A DNA stretch of 64,000 bases from Escherichia coli. GTDB taxonomy: Bacteria; Pseudomonadota; Gammaproteobacteria; Enterobacterales; Enterobacteriaceae. The first letter of the stretch is position 1. Each line of letters begins with the position of its first letter. Location: the NCBI RefSeq assembly GCF_051903065.1, contig NZ_CP178438.1. The stretch is one strand, 5' to 3'. Position numbers and translations under genes: made by a program. A model generated the notes under the pieces. The model did no database searches and had not been told where the DNA came from. It saw only the letters and a list, made by a program, of their open reading frames with translations. This document shows positions 6,778-27,000 of this stretch, piece by piece.

Positions 6778-8012
6778 TCGGCAACCGCCTCATCGACCTT
6801 AACACGACGTTTGCCAGTCAGTAGCTGTTGCATCAGGGCTTTTTTCTCATCTCTCAGGCAGGCGAGTTTTTTCTCCAGCGTGGAGATTTCGGCATCGGCG
6901 ACGGACAGGACGGCGGCGATTTTTTGTTGTTCTCTTATACTGGGTAAGTCTAGTTCAAACTCTTTAACCATTCCGGCGTTTAGGTTGGACTGTGTACCTT
7001 GCTGGCCTTGTAGTTTTATTTTTTCTTTTAATGATGTAAGATAGAAATATAAAAACTCATAATTTAAACAATCTTTTGGTCTAATACCCAAGATTGCCTG
7101 CGAAGATGTTAAATTTACAGCAGCAATGCTGCATTCACCTATAGAAGCATACATAGCATAAAGAACCGAGTTTTTTGGATATATTCTTGCGGATGAACTG
7201 TTCAATCCTAATTCAGTCAGATATTTTTCAGTTGTAGCAATCCACTTTCCATTAGATGTCATATCAGAAATAGATACCCATGGGATATTCCCGCCATAAT
7301 ACTCTTCAACCGTTGATTTCGGAGTACCTCCACTGTTCATATCGGCTATCGCACCCAGTTTTACTCTCTTCCACTCCCCACTAAACCTCACCCCATTCTC
7401 ATCCAGCAAGCGTTTCTTCCCGGTAAGTAATTGCTGCATCAGGGCTTTTTTCTGCTGCTGACTATTGGCGAGCAGCTTTTCCGTCACTGAAATCGCGTTA
7501 TCCCAGGTTGACAAGATTTTGGCTATTTTCTTTTGTTCCGCCAGTGGGGGGAGTAATACAGGAAAACCGCAAACATCATCACGTGTAATATTAGGGTCTT
7601 TACGACTACTTGCCGCAAATTTCTTCCATAATTTTACATTCCCGTTTAAGTAATTCAGGATATATGCTGGTTCTGCTTTATCACGATCGAGTATAAGACC
7701 GGATAATGCTTGGTTTATTGCTGCCGGTATAGTGAGAAGTCCAGTTCTTCCGATCTGGTTAAAGCCTCCATACATCGCTACTAAAACAGTACCAACAGGA
7801 AATACAGAGCAAGATGTTTCTAAAAGGGCTGTGTCAGTAATTTTCTCATCAGTTGAGATAATTTCACCGTTATTTAGGTCTAATGTCTTTACCCATGGAG
7901 TACCAGCAGTAGAAAAATAACGCTCTCCCTCAGCCCTCAGCGGAGTAGATCCAGATTTAATTTTTGCTATGTCCGATAATTTGACATGTCTCCAGCCAGG
8001 TTTGAGCTTCAT
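6774..8012 (-). CDS. hsdS: Type I R-M specificity subunit
   Basis: Two target-recognition domains with repeated conserved spacer motif KKALMQQLLTGK(K/R)R. Confidence 0.85.
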   Translation of the reverse strand: MKLKPGWRHVKLSDIAKIKSGSTPLRAEGERYFSTAGTPWVKTLDLNNGEIISTDEKITDTALLETSCSVFPVGTVLVAMYGGFNQIGRTGLLTIPAAINQALSGLILDRDKAEPAYILNYLNGNVKLWKKFAASSRKDPNITRDDVCGFPVLLPPLAEQKKIAKILSTWDNAISVTEKLLANSQQQKKALMQQLLTGKKRLLDENGVRFSGEWKRVKLGAIADMNSGGTPKSTVEEYYGGNIPWVSISDMTSNGKWIATTEKYLTELGLNSSSARIYPKNSVLYAMYASIGECSIAAVNLTSSQAILGIRPKDCLNYEFLYFYLTSLKEKIKLQGQQGTQSNLNAGMVKEFELDLPSIREQQKIAAVLSVADAEISTLEKKLACLRDEKKALMQQLLTGKRRVKVDEAVAE

Positions 8013-9565
8013 AAGCTATCCTCTTGCATACTGAAGTTTTCTCTTTCACCATAACCCAACTCCTTCAGATAACCCGCCATCTCTGTTTCGAGTTTTGACA
8101 GTTCCACTTTCAATTGCTCACGTTCGGCACGCACAGCCAGCAAGTCAATCTCGTCTTCTTCCTCAAAGGTATCGACATAGCGCGGAATATTGAGGTTGTA
8201 ATCGTTGTCCTGAATTTCCTTCAGGCTGGCGAGATAGGCGTATTTCTCGACGTTATCGCCATCACGGTAGGTCTTGACGATTTTCTTAATGTTTTCTTCG
8301 CTAAGCTGGTTCTGGTTTTTACCTGCCTTGAATTCACGGCTGGCATCGATAAACAGCACCTTATCATCAACTTTCTGCTTTTTGAAAATCAGAATCGCAG
8401 CCGGAATCCCCGTACCGTAGAACAGTTTTTCCGGCAGACCAATTACCGCATCCAGCAAATTTTCGTCGATCAGTTTCTGGCGAATTTTACCTTCGCTGGA
8501 GCCACGGAAAAGCACACCGTGTGGCACAACTACGCCCATACGGCCAGTTCCCGGTTTCAGGGTTTCGATCATATGCGAGATAAAAGCGTAATCTCCTTTA
8601 GTCTTCGGCGGTACACCGCGACGAAAACGGCCAAACTTATCGTTCTCAGCCTCGTCATGGCCCCACTTATCCAGGCTGAACGGTGGGTTAGCGGTCACGA
8701 TATCAAACAGCATCAGGTCGCCATTTTTATCGAGCAGTTTCGGGTTACGAATGGTATCGCCCCACTCGATTTTATGGTTGTCTTCGCCGTGCAGGAACAT
8801 GTTCATTTTCGCCAGCGACCACGTGGAGCCAATCGCTTCCTGACCAAACAACGCATAATTACGGCTGTTATGTCCGGAGACAATTTTACGTCCGCACTTC
8901 ATCAATAACGAACCAGAGCCGCAGGCCGGATCGCAGATGGTATCACCCGGTTGCGGATCAAGCAGTTCAGCAATCAGGTCTGAAACTTCTGGTGGGGTAT
9001 AGAATTCCCCGGCTTTCTGCCCACCGCTGGCGGCAAAGTTTTTGATCAGATATTCGTAGGCATTACCGATAACGTCCAGCGTACCTACACGGCTTGGCTT
9101 CAGGTTGAGATCTTCACCGGCGAAGTCTTCCAGCAACTGACGCAGGATGGTGTTCTTCTGTTTTTCTTCACCCAAGCGGTCAGTGTTAAACGAAATATCC
9201 TGGAACACGCTTTTCCCGGCATCTTTCAGTTTGGTTCCGTTGGCTTCTTCGATTGCATGCAGAGCCTGATCGATACGCTCACCGTTACCCGGCTCATGGC
9301 GGCGTTCGTACAGCGCATAAAAGCTGGCACTTTTTGGCAGTACAAAACGCTCGTTGGCCATCATCGCTTCAATCAGTTCCGGCGCATCGCCATACTGTTC
9401 TTTGTATTCGTCATAGTGATCCTGCCAGACATCTGAAATGTACTTGAGGAACAGCATGGTAAGGATAAAGTCTTTATAGGTATCAGCACTGATGGTGCCA
9501 CGGAACGTATCACACGCGGCCCACAGGGCTTTGTTGATCGTGTCCTGACTGATTTTGTCGTTCAT
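8009..9565 (-). CDS. hsdM: Type I R-M N6-adenine DNA methyltransferase
   Basis: 518 aa; NPPF catalytic motif; AdoMet-binding DPACGSG; 4-bp overlap with hsdS. Confidence 0.9.
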   Translation of the reverse strand: MNDKISQDTINKALWAACDTFRGTISADTYKDFILTMLFLKYISDVWQDHYDEYKEQYGDAPELIEAMMANERFVLPKSASFYALYERRHEPGNGERIDQALHAIEEANGTKLKDAGKSVFQDISFNTDRLGEEKQKNTILRQLLEDFAGEDLNLKPSRVGTLDVIGNAYEYLIKNFAASGGQKAGEFYTPPEVSDLIAELLDPQPGDTICDPACGSGSLLMKCGRKIVSGHNSRNYALFGQEAIGSTWSLAKMNMFLHGEDNHKIEWGDTIRNPKLLDKNGDLMLFDIVTANPPFSLDKWGHDEAENDKFGRFRRGVPPKTKGDYAFISHMIETLKPGTGRMGVVVPHGVLFRGSSEGKIRQKLIDENLLDAVIGLPEKLFYGTGIPAAILIFKKQKVDDKVLFIDASREFKAGKNQNQLSEENIKKIVKTYRDGDNVEKYAYLASLKEIQDNDYNLNIPRYVDTFEEEDEIDLLAVRAEREQLKVELSKLETEMAGYLKELGYGERENFSMQEDSL

Positions 9566-9937
9566 GAATCATCCTGGTCTGAAGAAAAAGCTAGCGATGC
9601 AGGGCTTTGCATCTTAAAAATTGCGGTAAATGATACCGTAAGATGCCTCCCCTGACACGCCAATATCGCAGCATTCAGGTTTGCATCATCCCCGTAATAT
9701 CGACATGAGACAGACTGACACAACCTGGCTCGTCACTCGCTAAAAACCAATTATCTTAGTAAGATAGCATCCATATTAGCCATGGTGTAAAACTGCCGTT
9801 GGGGTAATGATGATCCATATATCACCCGTTCTGGTGTGTGGAGCTGACATGATCCATAATCGGCAACGTTGATGCCCTTTGATAGTAATGATGACCGTCA
9901 ATGTGATTCCCCTGCTGACTGGAGGTCTCCGGATAGA

Positions 9938-11104
9938 ATGAGTATTGCCAACTGCGCTATCGGCCCACTTTATGATGAGCAAATAAAAAAAACACTTATG
10001 TATGCTGACCATAAATTCAAGCGGCTAATGAATACACGAATGTCGTTACTCGAACATTTATCACCCCACTATGACTTATCTTCCATGTTCAGCTATGAGT
10101 TGGAGGGAAGAGTTTTTCGGATTAAATTGATCAAGCCTGAGATTAAATTATCTCGCCAGCAGTTGATCTTCTCCTCACTCTTTTTAGAGCATGATTTTCT
10201 AAAAGAATATAAAAAACACATCTCAAATACTCTACAAAAAACAATCAAACAGTGCATTAAAAAACACAAACAAAAAATCAAAATCGAGCCTTCTATTTTA
10301 GATTACATATCAGCGTCACCCCGCAATACGTCGAGTTATGTATTACATGAGATAGTTTTTGAATCTAAACATTGCGATGAAATTCGCAATATTAAAAATG
10401 ATATATTGCTTGATGAACTAACGTTGAATGGCCGGATCACTAACATTTCAAAATACATTAAAAATAGTCAAGATAAAATCGTCGAACATATAGAGTTCTG
10501 CACTCATAAATTTGTCAATATAAGTCGTAAGAACCGGCACATTTTCAACACCACCACAATATCTGGCAGAAAACCTAACATCACTGGTGTTTTACTTTGC
10601 CTTTCAGAATTGATAAGCAACCTGCATATTTACCCAACTGAAATTAATAATATAAGCAATGCCATAATATTAAGCATTGCATACTCTGTACTTCAACATC
10701 TTCAATCCGGAAGAGAAACAGAAAAAACCAAAACCTCTCCAGCACTGGATTTTATCCCCACCATCATCGCACCTCATGTTTTCTACCTGGCGAAACGCGA
10801 AAAATCCTCTCAATATAAATACATTGAAAAAGAATATCTTCTCGGCCAGTTACTTATATTTTTGATGTATAAAACAGTTTACTACTCGATTCATAGCATC
10901 AGGGTAAGCCGTAAGCATTTCTATAATGATATAAAACCAAAATTAGTGACACTAAAAAAAGAAAGCTTATTAAGCACCAATTTCATGAAAAATCGAAGAG
11001 AGATTAGTGGTGAAGTCTTTGGTGATGTTGGTAGTATTGAGGCTGATTTTCGAGAAATCAGTACACTGATTCATCGGCGGAAGGCATTATTTATTTCCTT
11101 TTAA
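9938..11104 (+). CDS. Hypothetical protein, AT-rich, Lys/Ile/Asn-rich, no recognised domain
   Basis: Long ORF (track 9869..11104); start at 9938 chosen where composition turns AT-rich; start uncertain. Confidence 0.45.
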   Translation: MSIANCAIGPLYDEQIKKTLMYADHKFKRLMNTRMSLLEHLSPHYDLSSMFSYELEGRVFRIKLIKPEIKLSRQQLIFSSLFLEHDFLKEYKKHISNTLQKTIKQCIKKHKQKIKIEPSILDYISASPRNTSSYVLHEIVFESKHCDEIRNIKNDILLDELTLNGRITNISKYIKNSQDKIVEHIEFCTHKFVNISRKNRHIFNTTTISGRKPNITGVLLCLSELISNLHIYPTEINNISNAIILSIAYSVLQHLQSGRETEKTKTSPALDFIPTIIAPHVFYLAKREKSSQYKYIEKEYLLGQLLIFLMYKTVYYSIHSIRVSRKHFYNDIKPKLVTLKKESLLSTNFMKNRREISGEVFGDVGSIEADFREISTLIHRRKALFISF

Positions 11105-11610
11105 CTTTAAAACGATAAAAACAAATGAGAGACTGAATAAATATCAGCCTCTCACATAGTTAATAAGTTTCAACTTTAATATCTGAGAAATCATTCTATC
11201 TGGGCCTTGTGGACATTAATCCTCCTGGCAACATACGACTCAAAGTTTCAGCCTTGTATAGCCATCATAAATAGTACAGGATTGGGTGCTGCTCGCATGT
11301 ATCATTCTGGTATTAATACTGATCATCAGGGGTAACTTGTATGTAATTTAAAAACCATCATATCTCAAATCTCACAATGCTCATATTTTAACCATAAAAA
11401 CTAACCGATTTACACCCGCCATATATTATCATAACTTATTGTATTTAAATGGCTATAAGCCTCTAACTCACTGATTACACCATTAAATTCAAGCCATATC
11501 CTTACGCAGATACAAGCTTGCCCCTGCTGCCATTCACGTTTTAGGATTACCTCGCTAACACGACATGCTACTTTTTAAATCAGTGTAATAATTCAAACGA
11601 GGATAAAATT

Positions 11611-12741
11611 ATGTTCGAGAAAATGAAAAACAATGTAACCCGTATACCGGGGAATTTAACAAAACTTAATCAATACCAAAAAGACATTGATCACCTGTCT
11701 AAACTATTTTCTGAACAGCAATTACTGGAACTAATGACGACTACCGAATCCGATCAAATATTGCAAATGAAGCCTGCTGTAGATATTCTTCATGTACTAT
11801 CTCCATCAGCATCTACTGCTAAGCATATCAATTTTTTTCAGCACGTCCCAGTGCTCGAACAATGGTTAAAAAAGGAGTGCACTGCCTTTAATTTACTGGC
11901 AGTACATTTCTATTCACAGCAATCCCGTAAAAATGTCATTCCGAAAGAAATCTGTATGCTACTGGATGCATTTATTAAAACTGAACTTTCATCTGCGGTT
12001 AATGGTAATAATAATGCCGAACTCCTTTCTTGTTTTCAAAACACGCTGGATAAAATGTGCAATACACTAACATTTATAGACCACACAGTTACGGAACAAT
12101 CAGGTCAAGTAGCAATGCTTGATTTCAGCGCAAAAATGCATGAATATACTGTTGAAATCAGGACCTTTTTGAAGTCTGAATACTGGCTAAACAAACTACC
12201 TAAGGATATTAATATTCCATCCATTGACCTATCCTGGCTTGTGTTTTGTTACTTTTGCTCTGAATATCTTTTTGTATTTATTCAAACAACGCTCAATACA
12301 ATGAAGGCAGGAAAAATCATTCGTGATAACTACCTTTATCATCCTAAAATGATTGCATTGATCATTTTATCTATGCTGCCTTATGAAGTCATTCATAACG
12401 ATGGATCACTGAGTGAGTTTAAAACGCCTTTAACCAGCCCTGATGAGTTCATAATCAAATCTATTTGCATTAAAGGTAAGCAAAACACTACAGGGCATAA
12501 AAAAGATATAGAACAATTGCTTCGTAAGACATATATCTATATTGCATTACTCTTAAACCCTGAGTGGGCACCATCTTCCAAGGAGTTGATTTCCTTTTTA
12601 TCAGGAAAGTCCACAGTGATAAGTGGTTCACTCAACTTCCAGTCAACCTCCAGTGGTCTGGGTGTTCAAACAAACAATATCACTCTTCTTAAGAATGAGG
12701 TTTACTTCGAAAAAATAGCGAACAAGATCATGAAACTGTAG
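11611..12741 (+). CDS. Hypothetical protein, AT-rich, no recognised domain
   Basis: 376-aa ORF with GAGGA RBS upstream of ATG. Confidence 0.5.
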   Translation: MFEKMKNNVTRIPGNLTKLNQYQKDIDHLSKLFSEQQLLELMTTTESDQILQMKPAVDILHVLSPSASTAKHINFFQHVPVLEQWLKKECTAFNLLAVHFYSQQSRKNVIPKEICMLLDAFIKTELSSAVNGNNNAELLSCFQNTLDKMCNTLTFIDHTVTEQSGQVAMLDFSAKMHEYTVEIRTFLKSEYWLNKLPKDINIPSIDLSWLVFCYFCSEYLFVFIQTTLNTMKAGKIIRDNYLYHPKMIALIILSMLPYEVIHNDGSLSEFKTPLTSPDEFIIKSICIKGKQNTTGHKKDIEQLLRKTYIYIALLLNPEWAPSSKELISFLSGKSTVISGSLNFQSTSSGLGVQTNNITLLKNEVYFEKIANKIMKL

Positions 12742-12884
12742 TTTCTTAATATAATGGCGACATGGAATTGTGTTGCCATTATATCCGAATCTGCGTTTTT
12801 TCACCTGATGAACTGTGAAAGCTGTAACTGGCAGACTATAACCTCACATCGTATTTTTCCAGTGTCATTTACAGGAGAAATACG

Positions 12885-14021
12885 ATGCCTATTCTGGATC
12901 TGCGTTTCAGCAACAAATCACTTCACCAACTTCTACATCCCCTCACGGGTTGTCAGGAATACCGTGATATTCACTGCCAAAACCTGCGTGCTCTGGTGTA
13001 TCCCAATCGGATCACGCTGGCCTTTCGTGCCACTATAAACAATCAGCGTATATATGAAACCCTGGGTCAGTTCCCTCAGCTCTGCGTTGAGGATGCCCGT
13101 CAGCATGTGATGAAACTGCTTGCTGATAAAAATCGTCTTGCGGTTCAGTCCCGTCGATTCACTGTGGAACAGGCCATCAATGACCTGTGGCTACCGGATT
13201 TGCAGTTGTATAAAAAGAGTCCTCAGTCAGAGTTGTCAAAACTCAACCTCTACGTTCGCCCGTTCTGGGGCAAGCGGCAACTTCGCGACATCACGGCAGG
13301 AGAACTAGAACAATATGCTGCTGGCTTACGGGAAAAATTACGTCCGTCAACAGTAAACCGTATCCTCGCAATATTGTCCAAAATATGCTCTCTGGCAGTA
13401 CGTGCTGGATGGATCACGCATTCCCCGATGTCACATGTCCGCTATCTGAAAGAAAATAACATTCGCTATCGCACACTGTCAGCGACAGAAATCCCGCGCT
13501 TTATTGACGCGGCAACAGCGCTGCAAACACCGGCAGCTGATTCTATATTGCTTGCTCTTTATACGGGGATGCGTATTGGTGAGGTATGTACCCTGAAATG
13601 GGAGTACTGGCACCCGGATATGCATCAACTCATACTGCCTGATACAAAGTCCGGACACCCTTTCACCTGCCCACTTGCACCTCCAGCCATTGCAGTTGTC
13701 CAGTGCCAGCAGGACCTGATGCTCAGCAAAACTTACATTTTTCCACAACTAACCGACAATGTCCGCCCTCTGGCATATCCGCGTGCAACCTTTGCCCGTA
13801 TTTGTCGGGATGCCAACATTGATAACCTGCGGATGCATGACCTGCGCCGTACCTTTGCCACCCGGGTACTACAGGCGACCGGGGATATTGCAATCGCTTC
13901 CCATCTGCTAAATCACCATTCACTCACGGCGACCCGTCGCTACGCTTTTCACAATGCAGCGACATCACACGCAGTGGTTTCTCAGGTCATAGAAAGTTAT
14001 GACACAAAAATGAACCTATGA
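12885..14021 (+). CDS. Tyrosine recombinase / phage-type integrase
   Basis: C-terminal catalytic motifs HDLRRTFAT and LNHHSLTATRRY; AGGAG RBS. Confidence 0.8.
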   Translation: MPILDLRFSNKSLHQLLHPLTGCQEYRDIHCQNLRALVYPNRITLAFRATINNQRIYETLGQFPQLCVEDARQHVMKLLADKNRLAVQSRRFTVEQAINDLWLPDLQLYKKSPQSELSKLNLYVRPFWGKRQLRDITAGELEQYAAGLREKLRPSTVNRILAILSKICSLAVRAGWITHSPMSHVRYLKENNIRYRTLSATEIPRFIDAATALQTPAADSILLALYTGMRIGEVCTLKWEYWHPDMHQLILPDTKSGHPFTCPLAPPAIAVVQCQQDLMLSKTYIFPQLTDNVRPLAYPRATFARICRDANIDNLRMHDLRRTFATRVLQATGDIAIASHLLNHHSLTATRRYAFHNAATSHAVVSQVIESYDTKMNL

Positions 14022-14163
14022 TCTGTGATTCGTGATTGATGCAACACTCGTTTAAGGACGGTATTGTCATTGCATGCTTCTGCAGGGCCCTGCATTAAGT
14101 CATCAAAGAATGTGGATTGATATTAAATCCGCGTGGTTTCTTCTTCTCTAAAACCGGAGGTTT

Positions 14164-14364
14164 ATGTATTTAACCATTAAGCAGTTTGCAGAAAGATTTA
14201 ATCTTTCCGCATCCACGGTTGCGTCAGATATATCGCGCAACCCAGGAAAACTCCCGCCCTTCATCAGAATTGGGCGGGCTATACGATTCTCTCTTGATGA
14301 TATTGTTGAGTGGGAAAATGCACATCGTCAAAACAAACTTAAAGGTGATATAAATGGTTACTAA
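14164..14364 (+). CDS. AlpA/Xis-like small HTH DNA-binding protein (putative excisionase)
   Basis: 66 aa, position downstream of integrase, GGAGG RBS. Confidence 0.6.
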   Translation: MYLTIKQFAERFNLSASTVASDISRNPGKLPPFIRIGRAIRFSLDDIVEWENAHRQNKLKGDINGY

Positions 14365-14410
14365 GAACACAGCAAATAATGCTAATAATGCACTGAACAT
14401 TCTTCCTGAA

Positions 14411-14419
14411 GCAGCAAAC
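14411..14419. repeat. 9-bp target-site duplication gcagcaaac (left copy; right copy at 15477..15485)
   Basis: Identical 9-mers directly flank the IS903-like element. Confidence 0.85.
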
Positions 14420-15476
14420 GGCTTTGTTGAATAAATCGAACTTTTGCTGAGTTGAAGGATCAGATCACGTATCTTCCCGACAACGCAGACCGTTCCGTGG
14501 CAAAGCAAAAGTTCAAAATCACCAACTGGCCCACCTACAATAAAGCCCTCATCAACCGTGGCTCCATAACTTTCTGGCTGGATGATGAAGCTATTCAGGC
14601 CTGGTATGAGTCAGCAACACCTTCTTCACGAGGCAGACCTCAGCGCTATTCTGACCTTGCCATCACGACTGTGCTGGTCATTAAACGCGTATTCAGGCTG
14701 ACCCTGCGCGCTGCGCAGGGCTTTATTGATTCCATTTTTTCTCTGATGAACGTTCCGCTACGCTGCCCGGATTACAGCTGTGTCAGCAGGCGGGCAAAGT
14801 CGGTTAATGTCAGTTTCAAAACGCCCACCCGGGGTGAAATCGCACACCTGGTAATTGATTCCACCGGGCTGAAGGTCTTCGGTGAAGGCGAGTGGAAAGT
14901 CAAAAAGCATGGCCAGGAACGCCGCCGTATCTGGCGTAAGCTGCATCTCGCCGTTGACAGTAAAACACATGAAATCATCTGCGCTGACCTGTCGCTGAAC
15001 AACGTTACGGACTCAGAGGCCTTCCCCGGGTTAATCCGGCAAACCCACCGGAAAATCAGGTCAGCCGCCGCCGATGGCGCTTACGATACCCGGCTATGTC
15101 ACGATGAACTGCGGCGTAAGAAAATCAGCGCGCTTATCCCTCCCCGAAAAGGTGCGGGTTACTGGCCCGGTGAATATGCAGACCGTAACCGTGCAGTGGC
15201 TAATCAGCGAATGACCGGGAGTAATGCGCGGTGGAAATGGACAACAGATTACAACCGTCGCTCGATAGCGGAAACGGCGATGTACCGGGTAAAACAGCTG
15301 TTCGGGGGTTCACTGACACTGCGTGACTACGATGGTCAGGTTGCAGAGGCTATGGCCCTGGTACGAGCGCTGAACAAAATGACGAAAGCAGGTATGCCTG
15401 AAAGCGTGCGTATTGCCTGAAAACACAACCCGCTACGGGGGAGACTTACCCGAAATCTGATTTATTCAACAAAGCC
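14420..15476 (+). mobile_element. IS903-like element (IS5 family), 1057 bp with terminal inverted repeats
   Basis: Terminal IRs ggctttgttgaataaatcg / cagatttattcaacaaagcc; transposase ORF; 9-bp flanking duplications. Confidence 0.85.
14452..15420 (+). CDS. IS5-family (IS903 group) DDE transposase
   Basis: ORF inside the IS; N-terminus QKFKITNWPTYNKALINRGSITFWLD; true start may be internal. Confidence 0.85.
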   Translation: MKDQITYLPDNADRSVAKQKFKITNWPTYNKALINRGSITFWLDDEAIQAWYESATPSSRGRPQRYSDLAITTVLVIKRVFRLTLRAAQGFIDSIFSLMNVPLRCPDYSCVSRRAKSVNVSFKTPTRGEIAHLVIDSTGLKVFGEGEWKVKKHGQERRRIWRKLHLAVDSKTHEIICADLSLNNVTDSEAFPGLIRQTHRKIRSAAADGAYDTRLCHDELRRKKISALIPPRKGAGYWPGEYADRNRAVANQRMTGSNARWKWTTDYNRRSIAETAMYRVKQLFGGSLTLRDYDGQVAEAMALVRALNKMTKAGMPESVRIA

Positions 15477-16065
15477 GCAGCAAACACAGCTGTAGACAAC
15501 GATGAAAAATATCTGTCCTTTGCATTAGTTCTCGCTATCACGATTATGGACAACTTAGTAAAGCTCATCGGCACAGATGGCTTCGTACTTTATACCTACA
15601 CCCTGCAGGACACGGCTACTGCTCGTGCTGTTTTTAATGAATTAGCCAGGCGTCTCAAAAATTTCAATCGTCAGGAGGAGGTCTACACCACCGATTCCCT
15701 CACCTTTCGAATGAAATACATTTACGGTGTTACCCTGTTCGAACATGATAGTAAATCTATCCTTAACCTCTTTGATAAGAAGGGTTATCCGGTATTGAGT
15801 GAATCAGGAGAACCCGGTTCTCTTGATGATATGTATCTTGACATTCAAGCCCGATTACATGGCGGCTACGCCTCAAAAAAGTTTCTTCATTTACATGAAC
15901 ATTGTCTGTTATCTGCACACGTTACCCCGTCTGTGGAAAAGACGCAACGCGGTATCCTGATTAAAGTAGGCAGGAAACTCGTTTCCTTTATCCATGTAGA
16001 TGATGAATCACACAAAACCGATATTTTCAAATCTGTAGTAAATGTTATTAAATCTTGATTCTTTA

Positions 16066-16093
16066 TGCCGGGACACAGCTCCCGGCATTTTTT
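16066..16093 (+). terminator. Hairpin plus T-tract just upstream of the piPolB start
   Basis: tgccggga-cacagc-tcccggca followed by tttttt. Confidence 0.5.
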
Positions 16094-16104
16094 CGGAGTT
16101 AACT

Positions 16105-18705
16105 ATGAGCAATAATTTGCAGGACATCCTCGCTGCCGCCTCGGGGTATCAGTCCGTGACTTCAGAGCCAGCGTTCAATCGTAAAAGACCTAAAACGCTT
16201 GATGATTATCCTGTGATACCACCTGCATCAAAAAAAGTATCTGTTATTTCAAGTGACCTGACACTCCATATCGGTTTTGATACCGAATATGTTTTCAACC
16301 CTGAAACACGACAGAATGATATTCTGTCATATCAGAGTTATGTTGTCTTACCCGATAATACAGGTATATCGAACATTATCTATCCACCTGACTCACAGAA
16401 AAAATCCCGGCTGTCTTTTAAGGAATTTCTCTGTCAAACGATTACACCGCTTCTTGAAACGGGTGTGATTACAAAATGGCCCGGTATTATTAATATATAT
16501 GCGCATTTCATTCGTGCGGATATCGCCTCCTTTGCCAATTTCTGGTCAGACTACAAAATTCTTCTGAAAGGAATACGCGGTACTGTCAGCAGCTTCAAAA
16601 ATCGTTACGGTATCGATTTTGATGAACAGCAGGAACGTCGCGTAAAGACTGAACAGATAATGTTTGACAAACGAACTTCCCCTCCGCGTTGCAGTAACGT
16701 AGCTTTCATCGATACACTGCTTATCACTCCCGGGGGTATGGGTCTGGCTGAATGTGGTGAATTACTGGGTCTTCCCAAACTCACCATTCCTGCACCTTAT
16801 TCCATAACCAATATGCGTGAATATCTTCTGGGCGACAGAGCAGGGTTTGAAGCCTATGCTCTGCGGGATGCCGAGATTGCGGTTCGTTATGCTTTACAGG
16901 TTCGCAATTTTTGCGCCCGGGAGCTGATGATTGATCGTGTCCCCGCCACCATCGGGGCGATGGCAGTTTCACGGTTCACCAAAACACTTAAAGAAAACAA
17001 TATGTCTCCTGAAGTCTGCCTTGGGACACACATTAAAACCCGTGAACTCTGGCTCACGGAGAAACAGGCATTCCGGACGATTAAAAACCCCGCCAGTGTT
17101 CCTTCAAGAGAGTTGTTTGAAACGTTCCCGATCAACTGTTACCACGGCGGACGCAATGAGTGTTTTATGATGGGGGTTACACCGTCTGATCACTGGTATG
17201 ACTACGATCTGGCTGGAGCGTATACCACCGGGCTATTAGATATCCTCACACCCGATTACGGGAACATCCGCCTCAGTAAAAATCCGGACGATTACTGTGG
17301 GCATGTAATGGGATTTGCGCTTGTCACATTTCGGTTCCCGGAATCAGTTCCCTATCCCAGCCTGCCGGTTCGGACCGATCAATATGGGTTATTCTTTCCA
17401 TTAAGTGGCGAATCATGGGCAACGGCACCTGAAATCGAACTTGCTCTGTCGCTCGGGGCAGAGATGACGATCCATAATGGGATCATCGTCCCCTGGATCT
17501 GTGACACCTCCCCACATAACAGCGAATCAACATCGGTGTTTCTTCCCTTTGTTCAACAGGTCCGTGAGAACCGTAATCGCCATATTAAAGGTTCTCTGGA
17601 GGAGAAATTCTGGAAAGAAATTGGCAACTCGCTTTATGGCAAACTTGCTCAGGGCCTTCGCGCCAAAACCGCCTTTGATACTGCCCGTGGATTAAACAGA
17701 TCCCTCCCACCATCATCGGTTACTCAGCCATTCTTTGCTGCGCATGTGACGGGATTTATCCGCGCCGTTGTCGGGGAACTCATGAATGCTTTGCCTTCTG
17801 ATTCATCGGTTGTCAGCGTCACAACCGATGGTTTTTTGACAAATTGCCCACTTGACAAGATAAACATGAGCGGTCCACTGTCTTCCCGCTTCCAGTCGCT
17901 GTGCGATATTGTTGATCCGGGTTCATCAATGTTGACATGTAAGCATGAGGTCAGCCAGCTTATCGCCATGAAAACCCGGGGGCAGTTAACCTATAGAGCT
18001 ATTCAGGGAAAACCTGTTGTTCATGCCAGGGCTGGCGTCAAACCTCCTGCCGATATTCCACGCAGTGACTATAACGACTATATGGTAGATCTTTACCTTA
18101 ATCGTTTACCCGGTCAGACGTTATCCCGAAGTACGTTGATATCAACGCGTGAGATGTGGCTCTCGGAAAGCGATCTGGTATCCCGGGAACAGGATATCCG
18201 TCTTAATCTGGAATTCGATTTCAAACGCCAGCCCGTACAGCCCGCCATGAATGAAGGGCATTTACTGATGTTTTCCCGCCCGTGGGATAATATGGAAGAG
18301 GCTCTGCAGCAACGCTCTCTTTTCGACGACTGGCGGCAAACGCATACACTGAAGACCCTGGCTGACTGGGATGACTGGTGTGATTTTCTCTATTGCCGGA
18401 CGGTGTTTTCTGATATGAAACTAAAAGTCGGAAGCAAACGTAGTGATGATATTTTAGTCAGACTATTTCTCCGGGCGCTGACTCAGTGCCAATGGGGGCT
18501 GATGCTGAAAGATAAAAAAAGTTATTCCTGTAAAGAGGTTGCTGAATGGCTGACGTCAGAAGGCTATTCAGTAACGGTGACTGATGTAAAAAATGCGGTA
18601 AGAGCAAAAATACCCCAAATGAAATTTAGTTCTGTAACACCGCGAATGAAGTCACTGATGGATATCATAGCCCGTAAATATCCGACATTCTGTCTTCCAG
18701 TCTGA
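16105..18705 (+). CDS. Family-B DNA polymerase of the primer-independent (piPolB) type
   Basis: Exo I FDTEY, Exo III YALRD, motif B NSLYGKL, motif C VTTDG, and KTRG in place of KxY; start taken at MSNNLQ after GGAG. Confidence 0.8.
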   Translation: MSNNLQDILAAASGYQSVTSEPAFNRKRPKTLDDYPVIPPASKKVSVISSDLTLHIGFDTEYVFNPETRQNDILSYQSYVVLPDNTGISNIIYPPDSQKKSRLSFKEFLCQTITPLLETGVITKWPGIINIYAHFIRADIASFANFWSDYKILLKGIRGTVSSFKNRYGIDFDEQQERRVKTEQIMFDKRTSPPRCSNVAFIDTLLITPGGMGLAECGELLGLPKLTIPAPYSITNMREYLLGDRAGFEAYALRDAEIAVRYALQVRNFCARELMIDRVPATIGAMAVSRFTKTLKENNMSPEVCLGTHIKTRELWLTEKQAFRTIKNPASVPSRELFETFPINCYHGGRNECFMMGVTPSDHWYDYDLAGAYTTGLLDILTPDYGNIRLSKNPDDYCGHVMGFALVTFRFPESVPYPSLPVRTDQYGLFFPLSGESWATAPEIELALSLGAEMTIHNGIIVPWICDTSPHNSESTSVFLPFVQQVRENRNRHIKGSLEEKFWKEIGNSLYGKLAQGLRAKTAFDTARGLNRSLPPSSVTQPFFAAHVTGFIRAVVGELMNALPSDSSVVSVTTDGFLTNCPLDKINMSGPLSSRFQSLCDIVDPGSSMLTCKHEVSQLIAMKTRGQLTYRAIQGKPVVHARAGVKPPADIPRSDYNDYMVDLYLNRLPGQTLSRSTLISTREMWLSESDLVSREQDIRLNLEFDFKRQPVQPAMNEGHLLMFSRPWDNMEEALQQRSLFDDWRQTHTLKTLADWDDWCDFLYCRTVFSDMKLKVGSKRSDDILVRLFLRALTQCQWGLMLKDKKSYSCKEVAEWLTSEGYSVTVTDVKNAVRAKIPQMKFSSVTPRMKSLMDIIARKYPTFCLPV

Positions 18706-18753
18706 TAACCGTTAAATCTCCCCCAACTCCTTTAACAGAAGTTGGGGGCTTAA

Positions 18754-19080
18754 TCACAGGCAATCGGCATCAAAACAGTGAAATAACTGCCGCGCGTCAG
18801 GATGGCCATTTACATGATAGATCCGCATGGCATGACAGGTGATACTCTGGAGATTAGCCGCCAGCCTTTTCCCCATATTCACCAGTATGCCGTGTGGTAT
18901 TTTACTGCTTGTACTGTTTACTGTCAGAGTAAAACAATTTGTTTCAACGCTGACCTCAATAAAATCATTTCCAAATAATGTACCGACAACCTGCCTGATT
19001 GTTTCTTCATAATCTGTCAGATCAATGACATCACGCCATCTCGCATTTACGAGTTGATACTTTCTGATATGTAAATACAT
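18754..19080 (-). CDS. Hypothetical protein (108 aa)
   Basis: ORF with AAAGGTGG RBS. Confidence 0.45.
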   Translation of the reverse strand: MYLHIRKYQLVNARWRDVIDLTDYEETIRQVVGTLFGNDFIEVSVETNCFTLTVNSTSSKIPHGILVNMGKRLAANLQSITCHAMRIYHVNGHPDARQLFHCFDADCL

Positions 19081-19299
19081 AGAACCACCTTTATGTTATT
19101 TCAACTAATATGATGTTCTCCGATATTATGAAAATATTAATCATCATTGTAATTGCTGATAACCTCTCTAACCTTCGGATCTTACGTTCCCCCCTGCCTC
19201 TCCGACTTGATGGCAAAAGTGCATGGTCAAATATGCAGCAAAAACATGTCATGTACAGGTCAGGATAATAATTATCACCCTGAACTTAAAAATACACAT

Positions 19300-19410
19300 G
19301 GACAGGATGAGTCCACATGTTATTCGATGATTCCAGCAATGTTTTAATATATTGATAATTAATGAGTTAATTTTTTTCTCCGTCACAGTAAAAGTGGACT
19401 CATCCTGTCC
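19300..19410. repeat. Perfect 17-bp inverted repeat pair (19300..19316 and 19394..19410) around a 77-bp AT-rich spacer, upstream of the WYL regulator gene
   Basis: ggacaggatgagtccac and its exact reverse complement gtggactcatcctgtcc. Confidence 0.7.
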
Positions 19411-19459
19411 GTTACTTTGCTGAAAATATCCTCTTCGCTGGCATTAACCGGATAAACGA

Positions 19460-20362
19460 ATGGGTAAGCACGATAAACTTGGATATCGACTCGGATTGAT
19501 ATTAACTCGCCTGAACAATGGTGAGTCACTAGCCGTCCGGGAGTTATCTGAGGAATTTAACGTTTGCGAAAAAACTATCCGTCGCGATCTTACTCAGCGC
19601 CTGTCCTATCTTAATCTGATTCGACAAAATGGTCGCTATCGCCTGTCTGACGGTGTTCTCGGTCAACGCAGCAATGCTGATTTACGTCATTTCACGCGCA
19701 TCCTGGGTATTGAAGGGCTGTTCCCTCGCTGGGATGACAGACTACTGAGTATTTTGTTAGGTAACACGAAAAATAACCCGTTTCTGATAAAACAACGTCC
19801 ATACGAAAACTGCGGATCATTCATGTCAATTCTGAATGTATTATCCGATGCCATCCTGTCACAGAAGAAAGTAAATTTTAATTACAAAGATAAAGAGTTT
19901 CGGGCTGTTGAGCCATACAGACTGGTTAATGACAACGGATTGTGGTATCTCGCTGCCGCCCATGACAGTACATTAAAAAGCTTTGTTATCTCATCTGTCA
20001 AAGACGTTTGCATGAGTAATATCTCTTTCAGGATAATCCCCGAAATTAATGAAAAAATAGAAAAGACAGATGGTATCTGGTATAGCGAAGACCTTATCGA
20101 AGTTCTCATTTCAGTTTCCGCACATGTTGCTCCGTGGTTTACCCACCGTCATCTATTGCCAGGACAGGAAATAATTCATACTTCCCGGTCTGGCGATTTA
20201 CTGGTGATATCACGTGTAACACACACAGATCAGATAATGCCTTTAATGAAATACTGGATACCGGATGTCGAAGTAATACAACCGGCCTCAATCCGTCAAC
20301 AACTTGCTGAAGATATACAATCCGCACTGAAACGTTACACCCAGCCAAGTAACGCCCCGTAA
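19460..20362 (+). CDS. WYL-domain transcriptional regulator (HTH-WYL-WCX; YafY/BrxR/CapW-like)
   Basis: N-terminal HTH ([21 protein letters not shown]), central GLWYL signature. Confidence 0.75.
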
Positions 20363-20423
20363 TGACACGGATAATATAATTTTCATTAAGTGCTATTTTT
20401 ATAAGCTAAAAAATGGAGTTACC

Positions 20424-21242
20424 ATGAAAAAATGCCCGGTTCTTCTTGTTGTATCAGGGTTTCTGACCGAAAATGATATATCATGGTTTAACCGAATTAA
20501 AGCAGGGTGTGGCCTTGATGTCAGATACTATAAATGGGAATCGGCAAATCTACTATCCATATTAAGTTCTGACATAGCGAACAAGTGGGGGTTATATACT
20601 CTCTTCCCCCTGAGAACATCTCCTTTATTGTCATCAATCTCCATTCCATTTAAAGCGCGTCAGGCCTGGTATAATGCAACGAAAGCAGCAGTTAATAACA
20701 GAGAAAAATTAGCACACGTAATAAACGAGATATACGTTAAAGAAAAGCGTAATGTGATCATAATGGGTCATTCTTTAGGGACTCGATTAATAAACAATAC
20801 ATTACCCTATATAAAAAATGATAATATTCTCTTAACAATCTCTATGGCCGGAGCCACCCCAATAACAAGTTATACAGAGAACATAATGAAAATGGCTTAC
20901 GGTTCAAAAATGGGGCATTTAAATATCTACAGTGAACATGATAAAGTACTTAACACGATATACCCTCTCGTAGAGTCAGTAACGCCAATTGGGGTTCGGG
21001 AGGTGAGATTCAGACCTGCTCGGGTGATCAACTGGAAGTGGGATATTGGTCACACTGAATATATTACTTCAAACAGGATTGATTCATTAACACACTGGTT
21101 AAATGTTACCTGTGCCGATTTAGCTGATCCAGCCGTAGAAATCACTGACGACGACATGAAATCATTTCATGATATTATTAATCTTGCGAATTTAACATGT
21201 CATAAAAACACTGTCGCACCTAAATTAATATCATTTGAGTAG
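20424..21242 (+). CDS. Putative alpha/beta hydrolase (GHSLG nucleophile elbow)
   Basis: 272 aa, IIMGHSLGTR motif; GGAG RBS; 61 bp downstream of the WYL gene. Confidence 0.55.
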   Translation: MKKCPVLLVVSGFLTENDISWFNRIKAGCGLDVRYYKWESANLLSILSSDIANKWGLYTLFPLRTSPLLSSISIPFKARQAWYNATKAAVNNREKLAHVINEIYVKEKRNVIIMGHSLGTRLINNTLPYIKNDNILLTISMAGATPITSYTENIMKMAYGSKMGHLNIYSEHDKVLNTIYPLVESVTPIGVREVRFRPARVINWKWDIGHTEYITSNRIDSLTHWLNVTCADLADPAVEITDDDMKSFHDIINLANLTCHKNTVAPKLISFE

Positions 21243-21261
21243 TTAAAAAAAGGTTGCATTA

Positions 21262-21300
21262 TAACGGGAGTGTATATTTACTCCCGTTAAGTTTCATATT
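21262..21300. terminator. Stem-loop between convergent hydrolase and small HTH genes
   Basis: taacgggag-loop-ctcccgtta, T-rich downstream. Confidence 0.45.
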
Positions 21301-21372
21301 TTATAGAATTGATATGGGGTGATGCTGCCAACTTACTGATTTAGTGTATGATGGTGTTTTTGAGGTGCTCCA

Positions 21373-21648
21373 GTGGCTTCTGTTTCTATCAGCTGTCCCT
21401 CCTGTTCAGCTACTGAAGGCGTGGTGCGTAACGGTAAAAGTACTGCCGGACATCAGCGCTATCTCTGCTCTCACTGCCGTAAAACATGGCAACTGCAGTT
21501 CACTTACACCGCTTCTCAACCCGGTACGCACCAGAAAATCATTGATATGGCCATGAATGGCGTTGGATGCCGGGCAACCGCCCGCATTATGAGCGTTGGC
21601 CTCAACACGATTTTCCGCCATTTAAAAAACTCAGGCCGCAGTCGGTAA
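21373..21648 (+). CDS. insA: IS1 InsA
   Basis: 91-aa ORF. Confidence 0.85.
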
Positions 21649-22070
21649 CCTCGCGCATACAGCCGGGCAGTGACGTCATCGTCTGCGCGGAAATGGACGA
21701 ACAGTGGGGCTATGTCGGGGCTAAATCGCGCCAGCGCTGGCTGTTTTACGCGTATGACAGGCTCCGGAAGACGGTTGTTGCGCACGTATTCGGTGAACGC
21801 ACTATGGCGACGCTGGGGCGTCTTATGAGCCTGCTGTCACCCTTTGACGTGGTGATATGGATGACGGATGGCTGGCCGCTGTATGAATCCCGCCTGAAGG
21901 GAAAGCTGCACGTAATCAGCAAGCGATATACGCAGCGAATTGAGCGGCATAACCTGAATCTGAGGCAGCACCTGGCACGGCTGGGACGGAAGTCGCTGTC
22001 GTTCTCAAAATCGGTGGAGCTGCATGACAAAGTCATCGGGCATTATCTGAACATAAAACACTATCAATAA
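21567..22070 (+). CDS. insB: IS1 InsB reading frame (expressed as InsAB' by -1 frameshift)
   Basis: 167-aa ORF overlapping insA. Confidence 0.8.
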
Positions 22071-22100
22071 GTTGGAGTCATTACCTTGATATGGATTCGA

Positions 22101-22328
22101 TTAAAAATTTCGTCTAACTCGTTCCCTTATCAAACTTGCCAGCCTTACCCTTCCAGGTGAAATAGTTTCCGTTACAGTTTCAACTCTCAACAAATCACGC
22201 TGTCCGGTTCGGCGACTGACCGCGAAACGCTGACATATATCATTAACCGATACCGTATTACCGGTATACAGTTGAAGTAATATCCAGCACAGCCTTTCTG
22301 CGATCCTTTCACCGCGAGTTTTATACAT
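22101..22328 (-). CDS. Small HTH DNA-binding protein (75 aa)
   Basis: HTH-like VSVNDICQRFAVSRRTGQRDL; GAAGG RBS. Confidence 0.45.
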   Translation of the reverse strand: MYKTRGERIAERLCWILLQLYTGNTVSVNDICQRFAVSRRTGQRDLLRVETVTETISPGRVRLASLIRERVRRNF

Positions 22329-22629
22329 CTGTAAAACCTTCAGTTATCGTCAACGATGACATAGCCCACCTCAAAACCCACATAACTGACTGTATTCATG
22401 AACATTTATTACCGGTGTAATACTGTCGTTGGGGTAATGGATTAACCGTTATCACCCTGCTACAGGAGAATGCTCCATAGGGGGCAAAAACCACGAGGGA
22501 TCTGAGATCCCCCGTGTCTGCACTTGTTTATGCGAACAGCCAGGAAAAAGAGACATCATCTCCATGCTGTGATGCACGCCACATGCAGTAGATTACAAAG
22601 CCGCCCGCTTTCTTCCTGTTCATAACGGG

Positions 22630-25636: not shown

Positions 25637-25716
25637 ATTTATCCTCATGTATCTGATTGATATCATGAAAATAATATATATCTGAAGGTGTTTTTATTAC
25701 GGGGCAGGATTGAAGA

Positions 25717-26785: not shown

Positions 26786-26797
26786 TCGGGAAGAAAG

Positions 26798-26871: not shown

Positions 26872-26924
26872 AAATTCTTCAGGCCTTTCAGCCAGACATC
26901 CGCTGACGCCGATGTCTTTTAAAC

Positions 26925-27000
<76 letters not shown>

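Follow-up and report, generated by a model that had tools for sequence, protein, structure and literature searches.

Two copies of a near-invariant 26-bp sequence in an Escherichia coli pipolin, a candidate operator for a small winged-HTH protein

The 64-kb stretch of E. coli DNA analysed here (the window) carries two copies of a 26-bp sequence, on the same strand and identical at 24/26 positions, as the first-pass annotation had claimed. Copy A, GGTGTAAAACTGCCGTTGGGGTAATG, occupies 9784-9809 where the core of a pipolin meets its cargo, within the 306 nt that separate hsdM from the divergent plus-strand genes, and copy B, GGTGTAATACTGTCGTTGGGGTAATG, occupies 22414-22439 between the terminator of the DUF2787 unit and the gene for p75, a stand-alone 75-aa winged-HTH protein. 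What was observed directly is the repeat at these positions, how extremely it is conserved and that it occurs together with p75. On balance, comparison of the sequences leads us to regard the 26-mer as a conserved operator that overlaps back-to-back promoter elements of enterobacterial pipolins and whose most likely ligand is p75.

The window contains an E. coli pipolin, a piPolB-encoding island located at the tRNA-Leu gene leuZ, which was itself undescribed and is of an already known kind. The piPolB ORF (16042-18705, plus strand) is annotated as a type-B DNA polymerase family protein, and an exhaustive search returned 2,078 homologues at E <= 0.001 in contexts typical of pipolins; distant piPolB loci were taken from the exhaustive representative search, a word-index search being saturated by near-identical E. 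coli proteins. The layout is that of a pipolin, with integration at tRNA genes (tRNA Leu-Cys-Gly, 26702-27000), an IntSXT-type integrase (24437-25666), a DUF2787 gene (22630-23064) and a WYL gene close by, and a distal defence cargo, and it agrees with the published description (PMC11551731). The WYL gene (19460-20362, plus strand) encodes a BrxR/CapW-like HTH-WYL-WCX regulator, an alternative candidate binder of the 26-mer. The core plus-strand genes (11611-18705) comprise an orphan gene (376 aa), the tyrosine recombinase IntP2 (12885-14021), the excisionase-like HTH_17 protein Exc (14164-14364), an IS5 remnant, orf170 and piPolB. Cargo in the window consists of a type I R-M system, M48 and DUF262, and the left end of the pipolin lies outside it. 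Excision of pipolins is reported to be negligible under standard conditions (PMC7385651), which is compatible with a repressed core, and two pipolin surveys (PMC11551731, PMC7385651) make no mention of a promoter, operator or regulator site.

Within the window, copies A and B were the sole matches to the 26-mer with at most 3 mismatches, while 100 dinucleotide-preserving shuffles of the window gave 0 matches, for a chance expectation of none. A relaxed scan (up to 9 mismatches) added matches at chance level only, four against about two expected, and none of them was intergenic. The likeness of the two copies is longer than first noted, since 10 unrelated bases to the right of each are followed by the same short box, TATCACCC, at 9820-9827 and 22450-22457; the remaining flanks of the two copies share no further similarity. 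The earlier suggestion of a duplicated promoter module does not fit, since beyond the 26-mer and a 6-8-nt box the copies lie in unrelated flanks. No third copy was found at the distal cargo end of the pipolin. By inspection, the 26-mer has no dyad symmetry (the only self-complementary bases are AAC/GTT, at positions 8-10 and 15-17) and, apart from the direct repeat GGTGTAA/GGGGTAA (17 nt apart), no internal regularity. A DnaA-box-like TTTTACACC (8/9) at its left end found no support. Resemblances to sigma-54, sigma-32, dif/XerCD, Ter, TyrR, LexA and CRP sites, judged by eye against consensus sequences, were rejected, as spacing or bases were unfit and none was conserved across lineages. A literature search for the 26-mer sequence returned one unrelated Drosophila paper only.

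Conservation was assessed in 27 distinct sequence contexts from at least five lineages (E. coli, Citrobacter, Serratia, Scandinavium, Buttiauxella and others), which yielded eight versions of the 26-mer. Positions 1-6, 9-10 and 14-25, i.e. 20/26, were invariant throughout, whereas the adjacent 40-nt flanks were 20-65% identical; the core proteins of the motif-bearing elements were 31-86% identical, IntSXT and a few closer pairs excepted. Such near-invariance amid strongly diverged flanks shows purifying selection, as expected for a protein-binding site, and amounts to a phylogenetic footprint above the neutral background in the contexts compared. Copy A was identical in four deeply diverged intergenic variants, bar one C13T change in locus L032, and copy B showed 0-2 changes upstream of every p75 homologue examined. 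The box to the right is of TWTCAC type (TATCAC, TATCAT, TTTCAC, CATCAC, TAACTC) and starts 10-12 nt from the motif in 27/27 contexts.

The strongest association found was with p75, the motif lying 80-86 nt upstream of this gene in every lineage that has it. Loci retrieved by protein rather than by motif, either via p75 (L024-L026, L032-L034) or via piPolB (L027), all carried the motif. Locus L027 combines a foreign IntP2 (33% identical), a 94%-identical hsdM gene devoid of the motif, no copy A, and a copy B identical at 25/26 positions. In the sequences compared, the motif thus follows p75 and neither IntP2 nor hsdM. A candidate degenerate copy A in L027 was discarded, its local alignment not being significant (14/300 shuffles scored as well). 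In the distant pipolins L028, L031, L035 and L036, neither p75 nor an analogous paired repeat was present, the scan for the 26-mer having covered L028 only. Among 5,426 complete E. coli genomes, about 400 contained the 26-mer, at no more than two places each, and its only carriers were pipolin-bearing genomes or plasmids that had captured the hsdM module; in E. coli it is not the dispersed repeat that would have undermined the first-pass proposal. Hundreds of Klebsiella plasmids carry hsdM with copy A, and two stretches inspected contained no pipolin core genes, so p75 in cis must be dispensable for hsdM expression there. Along with the type I R-M cargo, a piece of pipolin control DNA reached these plasmids.

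The p75 gene (22101-22328, minus strand), the product of which is the candidate cognate regulator, has its start codon 85 nt from copy B. The 75-aa HTH ORF predicted earlier at this place is real: NCBI PGAP does not call it in the window's lineage and calls homologues of 77-78 aa elsewhere, as 'DeoR family transcriptional regulator'. The family is uniformly 75-78 aa long, at least 73% identical and confined to Enterobacterales, and the same ORF is present in IS1-free genomes, so that truncation of p75 by the adjacent IS1 was rejected. Profile searches gave weak matches to Pfam HTH_11/HTH_DeoR, and p75 aligned with the N-terminal HTH part only of the PADLOC WYL-regulator model. Its AlphaFold model (pLDDT 66) has a helix-helix-helix-wing-helix topology, in the recognition region of which R40, T41, G42, R44, D45 and L46 are invariant or nearly so. 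A fold search gave generic winged-helix matches only, every one with E > 0.2, and a sequence search found no solved structural homologue.

An intrinsic terminator of the upstream IntSXT-DUF2787 transcription unit (22492-22516, minus strand) is conserved in all lineages, which means that a new transcription unit opens at copy B. ETEC H10407 carries a copy B region of the window's type (NC_017633.1, near 2,126,777). A PWM scan combined with alignment suggests a p75 promoter at 22389-22421 (minus strand), with a -35-like ATTACA inside copy B (complement of 22416-22421) and the -10-like hexamers ATGAAT (22394-22399) and TACAGT (22389-22394). At the equivalent place near copy B, four other lineages have TTTACA-N16-GATATT/GAAATT/GACATT, and TACAGT/TACAGC/TACAAT is kept 20-25 nt from the motif in copy B contexts. 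The window's own elements at copy B are poor (-35 ATTACA, -10 ATGAAT), the promoter candidates at the motif are weak PWM matches (scores 7-9), and a simple promoter scan reported none there.

Both copies are intergenic and in promoter regions, and this part of the first-pass placement held, whereas the label 'hsdM promoter' proved too narrow for copy A. The motif is 218 nt from the start of hsdM (8009-9565, minus strand), the first gene of the cargo operon hsdM-hsdS-yecA-like-hsdR-M48, and a better candidate promoter, GTGTCA-N17-TATCAT at 9630-9658 (minus strand), lies nearer hsdM, some 125 nt downstream of copy A; it is the top-scoring leftward candidate in the window and is conserved in L005 and L023. 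The 94%-identical hsdM of L027 occurs without the motif, and the Klebsiella plasmids have hsdM and copy A without pipolin core genes in the two stretches inspected. In relatives, copy A is 60-63 nt from the first plus-strand core gene and adjoins an extended -10, TGnTATACT, facing the orphan-IntP2-Exc-piPolB operon. Three variants of the region measure 306-308 nt and place the motif 218 nt from the ATG of hsdM and 63 nt from that of the orphan gene. TGnTATACT stands next to copy A in two unrelated right flanks and at no B copy; strain HCM-25C-3, of the L023 type, has it as TGtTATACT. In the window's lineage, a 410-aa gene (9872-11104, plus strand) inserted between copy A and the core orphan gene has taken the place of the extended -10, so the rightward role of copy A is presumably weakened or changed there. 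On the hsdM side, the PWM points to a candidate distal leftward promoter at 9761-9791 (minus strand), made of TTTACA within copy A (complement of 9786-9791), 19 nt, and TATCTT (complement of 9761-9766); it scores 8.5 both in the window and in L023, and TATC is kept in three flank variants. Searches by tblastn, blastn and tblastx revealed no relic of an HTH gene between copy A and hsdM, and the 53-codon ORF at 9562-9723 contains no HTH.

From these arrangements we infer where the promoters lie, which protein binds and in which direction it regulates, and the operator model is as follows. The site lies at the putative promoter of the regulator's own gene and at other promoters that it would regulate. 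At copy B, the -35-like TTTACA within the motif is oriented towards p75; a protein bound there would cover about -52 to -27 of the p75 promoter, and p75 may thereby autoregulate its gene. At copy A in relatives, the motif's two final bases would supply the TG of the extended -10 (TGnTATACT) aimed at the core operon, which puts the motif at about -39 to -14 of the core promoter, a repression position. Through copy A, p75 could hold the recombination/replication operon, and possibly the distal hsdM promoter too, under common control, a logic akin to that of a phage immunity operator. More tentatively, and in our opinion doubtfully, p75 and its two sites might be the master switch of enterobacterial pipolins, an immunity-type repressor silencing orphan-IntP2-Exc-piPolB from copy A and sustaining itself from copy B, with loss of binding leading to excision and piPolB-driven self-replication, the latter not known to have been observed in the laboratory.

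Some features of the motif sit uneasily with an operator. Typical operators of dimeric HTH proteins, that of BrxR included, have a dyad symmetry that the 26-mer does not share; the orientation of the motif is opposite relative to p75 and to the core operon; and 20/26 invariant positions exceed what most operators show. Variants of the p75 recognition helix showed no clear co-variation with variants of the motif.

An operator for another protein, be it the HTH-WYL-WCX regulator, Exc or a host factor, with p75 merely a controlled neighbour, is a less probable explanation that nevertheless deserves weight. Excisionases often bind direct repeats, yet Exc is just 39-58% identical between lineages sharing the motif. 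A conserved host factor would fit the near-total invariance of the 26-mer, and copy A is retained on Klebsiella plasmids, of which the two stretches inspected had no pipolin genes; against this, the motif in E. coli is restricted to pipolins and the captured hsdM module, unlike the sites of a host regulon. The gene for the WYL regulator belongs to the pipolin core and its HTH is conserved, and BrxR-family proteins recognise boxes of 25-27 bp located both at the regulator gene and at defence operons (PMC9122601). However, no motif (up to 9 mismatches) is found upstream of the WYL gene at 19460, where autoregulation of the BrxR/CapW type would place one, some strains with both copies have a split or uncalled WYL gene, and the dyad symmetry of BrxR boxes is lacking in the 26-mer.

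We think it improbable that the copies are attL/attR-type sites for IntP2 and its excisionase, serving excision of the 12.6-kb replicative core (from p75 through WYL and piPolB to Exc, IntP2 and the orphan gene) as a circle or module exchange. The two copies are same-orientation direct repeats flanking a segment that encodes the tyrosine recombinase IntP2 and the excisionase-like Exc, and P2-type att cores are of about this length; moreover, copy A is confined to lineages with the window's IntP2 family, the flank combinations around the motif are mosaic (L015, L019), and the literature assigns IntP2 no role (PMC11551731). Nevertheless, synthetic empty-site and circle-junction queries with window-type flanks detected no empty site, circle or tandem junction in the 5,426 complete E. 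coli genomes. The sole deletion between the copies, in strain I4, occurred elsewhere at a 3-bp tct microhomology and is illegitimate, both copies being kept. An apparent precise cargo junction at the motif edge in Serratia was rejected, its 54-aa ORF being an hsdM relic and its flank a diverged homologue of the hsdM leader. Inverted core-binding arms are absent from the 26-mer, 1-3 differences within the supposed att core are frequent between the copies of a single element, and the IntP2 gene adjoins neither copy. Co-variation with the recombinase family also fails in L027, which has copy B at 25/26, no copy A and an IntP2 only 33% identical.

It is slightly less probable still that the 26-mer is mere core promoter DNA for RNA polymerase, made of overlapping -35/-10 elements of back-to-back promoters and served by no dedicated regulator, or a patch persisting as a crossover point of homologous recombination between pipolin variants. 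It holds -35-like hexamers on both strands and supplies the TG of the extended -10, but contacts of RNA polymerase would constrain about 8-12 positions, against the 20/26 that are invariant, and the invariant block CGTTGGGGTAAT, no element of sigma-70 promoters, is kept in B copies despite the absence of a rightward -10. Flanks do recombine around the 26-mer (L015), and RecA-dependent exchange has a minimal length close to 26 bp; a recombination patch with no other function would have no reason to resist mutation. Finally, a function as RNA (leader, small RNA or attenuator) is very unlikely, since the 7-bp hairpin that the minus strand could form in A1- and B-type copies (GGGUGAU...AUUACCC) shows no compensatory changes and loses its partner TATCACC in the L023-type variant, predicted folds vary between variants with z-scores of +1.26 to -1.88, and neither copy has an Rfam match.

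Pipolins are widespread defence islands with a primer-independent DNA polymerase, and a near-invariant 26-bp site kept across genera together with a tiny conserved winged-HTH gene offers a concrete and cheap experimental handle on their switching. If the site is an ordinary autoregulatory operator only, the finding amounts to routine mobile-element annotation.

Several known systems resemble the proposed one in part. As with Vis of P4 and Cox of P2, excisionase-repressors that bind repeated boxes at a promoter and at attP, a small winged-HTH protein of an integrative element might couple transcription control with recombination, and the direct-repeat substructure is alike; by contrast, the 26-mer shows no sign of recombination and lies away from the pipolin att sites, and it is Exc rather than p75 that belongs to the HTH_17/excisionase family. 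Controller (C) proteins of R-M systems are likewise small HTH proteins; in both cases the protein is proposed to time or limit expression of R-M on a mobile element through a conserved box upstream of the operon. However, they are of Xre type, lie within type II R-M operons and act on a palindromic C-box immediately upstream of their own gene, whereas the R-M system of the pipolin is of type I, p75 is 12.6 kb off, the asymmetric box stands 218 nt from hsdM with neither an HTH gene nor a relic of one in between, and hsdM also exists without the box. Phage lambda OR, where CI and Cro act on PR and PRM, is alike in layout only, as a compact site overlapping divergent promoters; in the logic proposed here, the bound protein would sit at about -45 of its own promoter and over the core of a replication/recombination promoter. 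Unlike in lambda, the pipolin promoters are at two copies 12.6 kb apart, with no tandem operators shown and no sequence or protein homology; TATCACC resembles a lambda half-site, presumably by coincidence. The WYL regulator BrxR acts on R-BOX1 and R-BOX2, which are 10-11-bp inverted repeats with a 5-bp spacer (Picton et al. 2022, PMC9122601), while the 26-mer has no dyad symmetry and does not lie upstream of the pipolin's WYL gene, as an R-box of the BrxR/CapW type would. p75 has neither a WYL nor a WCX domain and is a predicted binder. In other respects the pEFER island of BrxR is arranged like the pipolin, with two 25-27-bp boxes on a mobile defence island, one for the regulator's own gene and one for a defence or other operon, and a regulator with a DeoR-like winged HTH that represses genes of the island, as we propose for p75 (PMC9122601).

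Copy A of the 26-mer (GGTGTAAAACTGCCGTTGGGGTAATG, 9784-9809) and copy B (GGTGTAATACTGTCGTTGGGGTAATG, 22414-22439) lie on the same strand and are identical at 24 of 26 positions, as the first-pass annotation had described. They are the sole matches in the window at ≤3 mismatches, with none in 100 dinucleotide-preserving shuffles, and relaxing the search to ≤9 mismatches only added chance-level matches, all within genes. The similarity extends beyond the 26 bp originally noted, since TATCACCC follows both copies after 10 unrelated bases (9820-9827 and 22450-22457), the remaining flanks bearing no relation to each other. A search for an HTH gene relic near copy A found none. The only internal regularity of the 26-mer is a direct repeat, GGTGTAA/GGGGTAA, 17 nt apart, and dyad symmetry is absent. 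Over the right end of copy A, 9803-9821 (GGTAATGATGATCCATATA) matches the Fur-box consensus (GATAATGATAATCATTATC) at 14 of 19 positions; this likeness occurs in the window lineage only and is probably due to chance.

The E. coli origin of the window is indicated by DsrA and a tRNA Gly-Cys-Leu cluster, and several complete genomes match the region at 100% identity. Left of tRNA-Leu (leuZ), the island runs from an IntSXT-type integrase (24437-25666, minus strand) through two or three orphan genes, DUF2787 (22630-23064, minus), an intrinsic terminator (22492-22516, minus), copy B, the 75-aa HTH ORF p75 (22101-22328, minus), IS1 and DUF726, an HTH-WYL-WCX regulator (19460-20362, plus), the type-B DNA polymerase piPolB (16042-18705, plus), the excisionase-like HTH_17 protein Exc (14164-14364, plus), the second tyrosine recombinase IntP2 (12885-14021, plus), a 376-aa orphan gene (11611-12741, plus) and a 410-aa gene (9872-11104, plus) to copy A and hsdM-hsdS-yecA-like-hsdR-M48, all minus. 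This is the published enterobacterial pipolin architecture, in which an IntSXT/DUF2787/WYL/piPolB/IntP2-Exc core stands beside a tRNA and distal defence cargo is swapped with plasmids (PMC11551731, PMC7385651); promoters, operators and an internal repeat go unmentioned in both papers. The core/cargo boundary is exactly where copy A lies. The integrase is 96-99% identical to those of three diverged lineages (L025, L024, L032) against 42-87% for the other core proteins, so the tRNA-proximal end has been exchanged between pipolin lineages or is far more constrained. The IS1 copy (21320-22086) ends 14 bp past the p75 stop codon and a frameshifted IS5-family element (14452-15420) breaks the gene between Exc and piPolB (170 aa, against 200-214 aa in relatives), so that the core operon of this element is probably damaged. 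The 410-aa gene may be a defence gene, judged by a sub-threshold match to AbiJ N-terminal domain 4 (E = 0.023); its annotated ATG (9872) is without a Shine-Dalgarno sequence, and GGAGG precedes the ATG at 9939. A conserved 110-nt stretch separates DUF2787 from its terminator, and this well-conserved 3' UTR holds an 18-codon ORF (MWRASQHGDDVSFSWLFA, 22528-22584, minus), whose length is conserved in three variants but not in the L032 lineage; it shows no obvious ribosome-binding site and is probably not a gene.

The search for further copies extended the motif to other pipolin lineages. Of 5,426 complete E. coli genomes, ~400 contain the copy A region and ~320 the window-type copy B region, with at most two motif places per genome, unlike the common dispersed repeat considered in the first-pass annotation. 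When 100,044 species representatives were scanned with a degenerate pattern, 13 loci came from Citrobacter, Buttiauxella, Intestinirhabdus, Franconibacter and Enterobacter, several genomes having two copies, and two further matches were MAGs: one labelled Nanosynbacter carries an enterobacterial A-type sequence, and that labelled Planctomycete is probably a chance match. The motif is also present in every locus retrieved independently of it, via p75 homologues (L024-L026, L032-L034) or a 50%-identical piPolB (L027). The 27 distinct contexts contain 8 motif versions, in which positions 1-6 (GGTGTA), 9-10 (AC) and 14-25 (CGTTGGGGTAAT) never vary; changes are confined to positions 7, 8, 11, 12, 13 and 26, and B copies account for nearly all of them. 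A TWTCAC-type box begins 10-12 nt right of the motif in all 27. The adjoining 40 nt show 20-65% identity between lineages, and the core proteins of these elements are typically 31-86% identical. At the sequence level, such conservation amounts to a strong phylogenetic footprint.

In every lineage, copy B comes after the DUF2787 terminator and 80-86 nt before the p75 start codon. The copy A region measures 306-308 nt in three otherwise barely alignable variants, with 218 nt between the motif and the hsdM ATG and 63 nt between it and the ATG of the core orphan gene; in the window, an insertion has placed the 410-aa gene next to the motif, ahead of the orphan homologue. Copy A is upstream of hsdM, but its first designation as an hsdM promoter motif is too narrow, the site being the divergent region between hsdM and the core operon, where core meets cargo. 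The idea that Serratia and L032 carry different cargo joined exactly at the motif was withdrawn, as their 54-aa ORF begins with the HsdM N-terminus. The 217-nt region upstream of this ORF is a third, diverged variant of the hsdM leader, indicating that the copy A layout is ancestral. Only the first ~13 hsdM codons and the leader are left beside copy A in L024 (19931-20234) and L032 (19607-20231), and Serratia and one E. coli lineage have a 956-aa UvrD-helicase/PD-(D/E)XK gene in place of the type I R-M. The ~75 nt just upstream of hsdM (window 9566-9640, minus, and equivalents in L023, L024 and L032) are highly conserved, with a hairpin (GATGCAaagcccTGCATC, 9613-9596) flanked by T-runs and a second small hairpin (9638-9624). 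In Serratia/L032 the hairpin sequence differs and self-complementarity is kept, so the changes look compensatory; this leader may control the type I R-M operon from its 5' UTR, for instance by attenuation.

Candidate promoters were taken from a position-weight-matrix scan across lineages, their assignments being inferred from sequence. Leftward on the p75 side, four B lineages have a -35-like TTTACA within the motif (complement of positions 3-8), followed after 16 nt by GATATT, GAAATT or GACATT, and the counterpart in the window (ATTACA ... ATGAAT) is weaker; TACAGT, TACAGC or TACAAT is conserved 20-25 nt from the motif on that side. The leftward candidate at copy A reads TTTACA-N19-TATCTT or TATCCT, and a proximal hsdM candidate, GTGTCA-N17-TATCAT (9658-9630), scores better at a position ~125 nt nearer hsdM. 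In the rightward direction, the final two bases of the motif combine with the flank into TGtTATACT (L023, L024) or TGaTATACT (L032), a near-perfect extended -10 in two unrelated right flanks. L005 has a weaker form of it (TGaTATATC), the window has lost it (TGaTGATCC), and no B copy shows it, these copies having no rightward gene. With these candidates, the core-operon promoter would have the motif at ~-39 to -14, and the p75 promoter at ~-52 to -27.

p75 is a real gene. PGAP does not call it in the window lineage; in other pipolin variants, the homologues (77-78 aa) carry the annotation DeoR family transcriptional regulator and open a three-gene minus-strand operon. The family is found in Enterobacterales only (75-78 aa, at least 73% identical), and its recognition region, SRRTGxRDLLR, has R40, T41, G42 and L46 invariant, with R44 and D45 nearly so. 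Pfam gave weak HTH_11/DeoR matches, a WYL-regulator model matched in its N-terminal HTH part only, and the AlphaFold model, of moderate confidence (pLDDT 66), has a helix-helix-helix-wing-helix topology that retrieved generic winged-helix domains only. Truncation of p75 by the neighbouring IS1 was ruled out. Two orphan genes (106 and 130 aa), without Pfam, PADLOC or NCBIfam match, lie downstream in the same operon in most lineages (L006 6843-7598, L024 10320-11075, L027 15846-16238), the 130-aa product being 80% identical between L006 and L027; the window lineage is without them, and there DUF726 converges on p75.

The window, L025 and L032 have copy B with p75 and also copy A, with IntP2 78% (L025) and 90% (L032) identical to that of the window and a first plus-strand gene 42% and 32% identical to its orphan. 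L027 has copy B (25/26) with p75 and no copy A; its IntP2 is 33% identical, its first plus-strand gene is unrelated to the orphan, and its hsdM is 94% identical, with another sequence upstream. Some strains with both motif copies have the WYL regulator split or uncalled. In L002 (13152-14054, strain M19) and L033 (5559-6463) it forms two ORFs, an HTH and a WYL part, p75 and both 26-mers being intact. hsdM with copy A also occurs on ~340 plasmids, nearly all from Klebsiella and mostly conjugative, with a few from E. coli and Serratia. The plasmid module (L008, hits H111-H199) corresponds to the pipolin cargo DUF262-M48-hsdR-yecA-like-hsdS-hsdM. No pipolin core gene was found in the two plasmid stretches inspected, and on the ET210 plasmid IS1 starts 45 bp right of the motif, suggesting IS1-mediated capture of the cargo with a piece of the control region. 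Neither p75 nor a comparable paired repeat was found in more distant piPolB elements (L028, L031, L035, L036), the scan for the 26-mer itself covering L028 only. Taken together, the lineages, L027, the WYL regulator and the plasmids indicate that the motif is associated most closely with p75, less so with the core operon and least with hsdM.

We propose that the 26-mer and the TWTCAC box would form an operator overlapping back-to-back promoters, with p75 as the most likely binder, autoregulating at copy B and, at copy A, repressing the orphan-IntP2-Exc-piPolB operon and perhaps influencing the distal hsdM promoter. Such repression would fit pipolin excision, reported as negligible or not detectable (PMC7385651). 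A functional cis-regulatory protein-binding site is the part we consider quite probable; the combined proposal is somewhat favoured, and the assignment of p75 as binder is tentative. The lack of dyad symmetry, the differing motif orientation relative to the p75 and core-operon units, the weak promoter matches and the 20/26 invariant positions, unusually strict for an operator, all count against the proposal. An operator bound by WYL, Exc or a host factor instead seems rather unlikely. A natural deletion in E. coli strain I4 (NZ_CP195978.1, 12140-12160) removed the whole core, including piPolB and most of p75, joining window-equivalent 9930 to 22299 via a 3-bp 'tct' microhomology and leaving both 26-mers 259 bp apart. 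That the 26-mers are attL and attR for IntP2-Exc, for which their geometry is attractive, is improbable: the 5,426 genomes gave no empty site or circle junction with window-type flanks, the I4 deletion used microhomology elsewhere, inverted arms are missing, the copies of one element often differ within the supposed core, and copy B persists with a foreign IntP2 (L027). Slightly less probable still, bare promoter DNA or a recombination patch would leave the invariant CGTTGGGGTAAT block unexplained, and an RNA element, with no Rfam match and no consistent fold, is very improbable.

The shared operator, possibly for the HTH protein, suggested in the first-pass annotation thus stands as the best reading, as a prediction. 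Its main value is as a tangible starting point for experiments on pipolin regulation. The element is undescribed and of a familiar kind. The proposed control resembles that by BrxR, whose two boxes lie at its own gene and at a defence operon (PMC9122601); the likeness lies in this pairing of a box at the regulator's gene with another at a different operon, while the likeness to lambda OR is one of layout.
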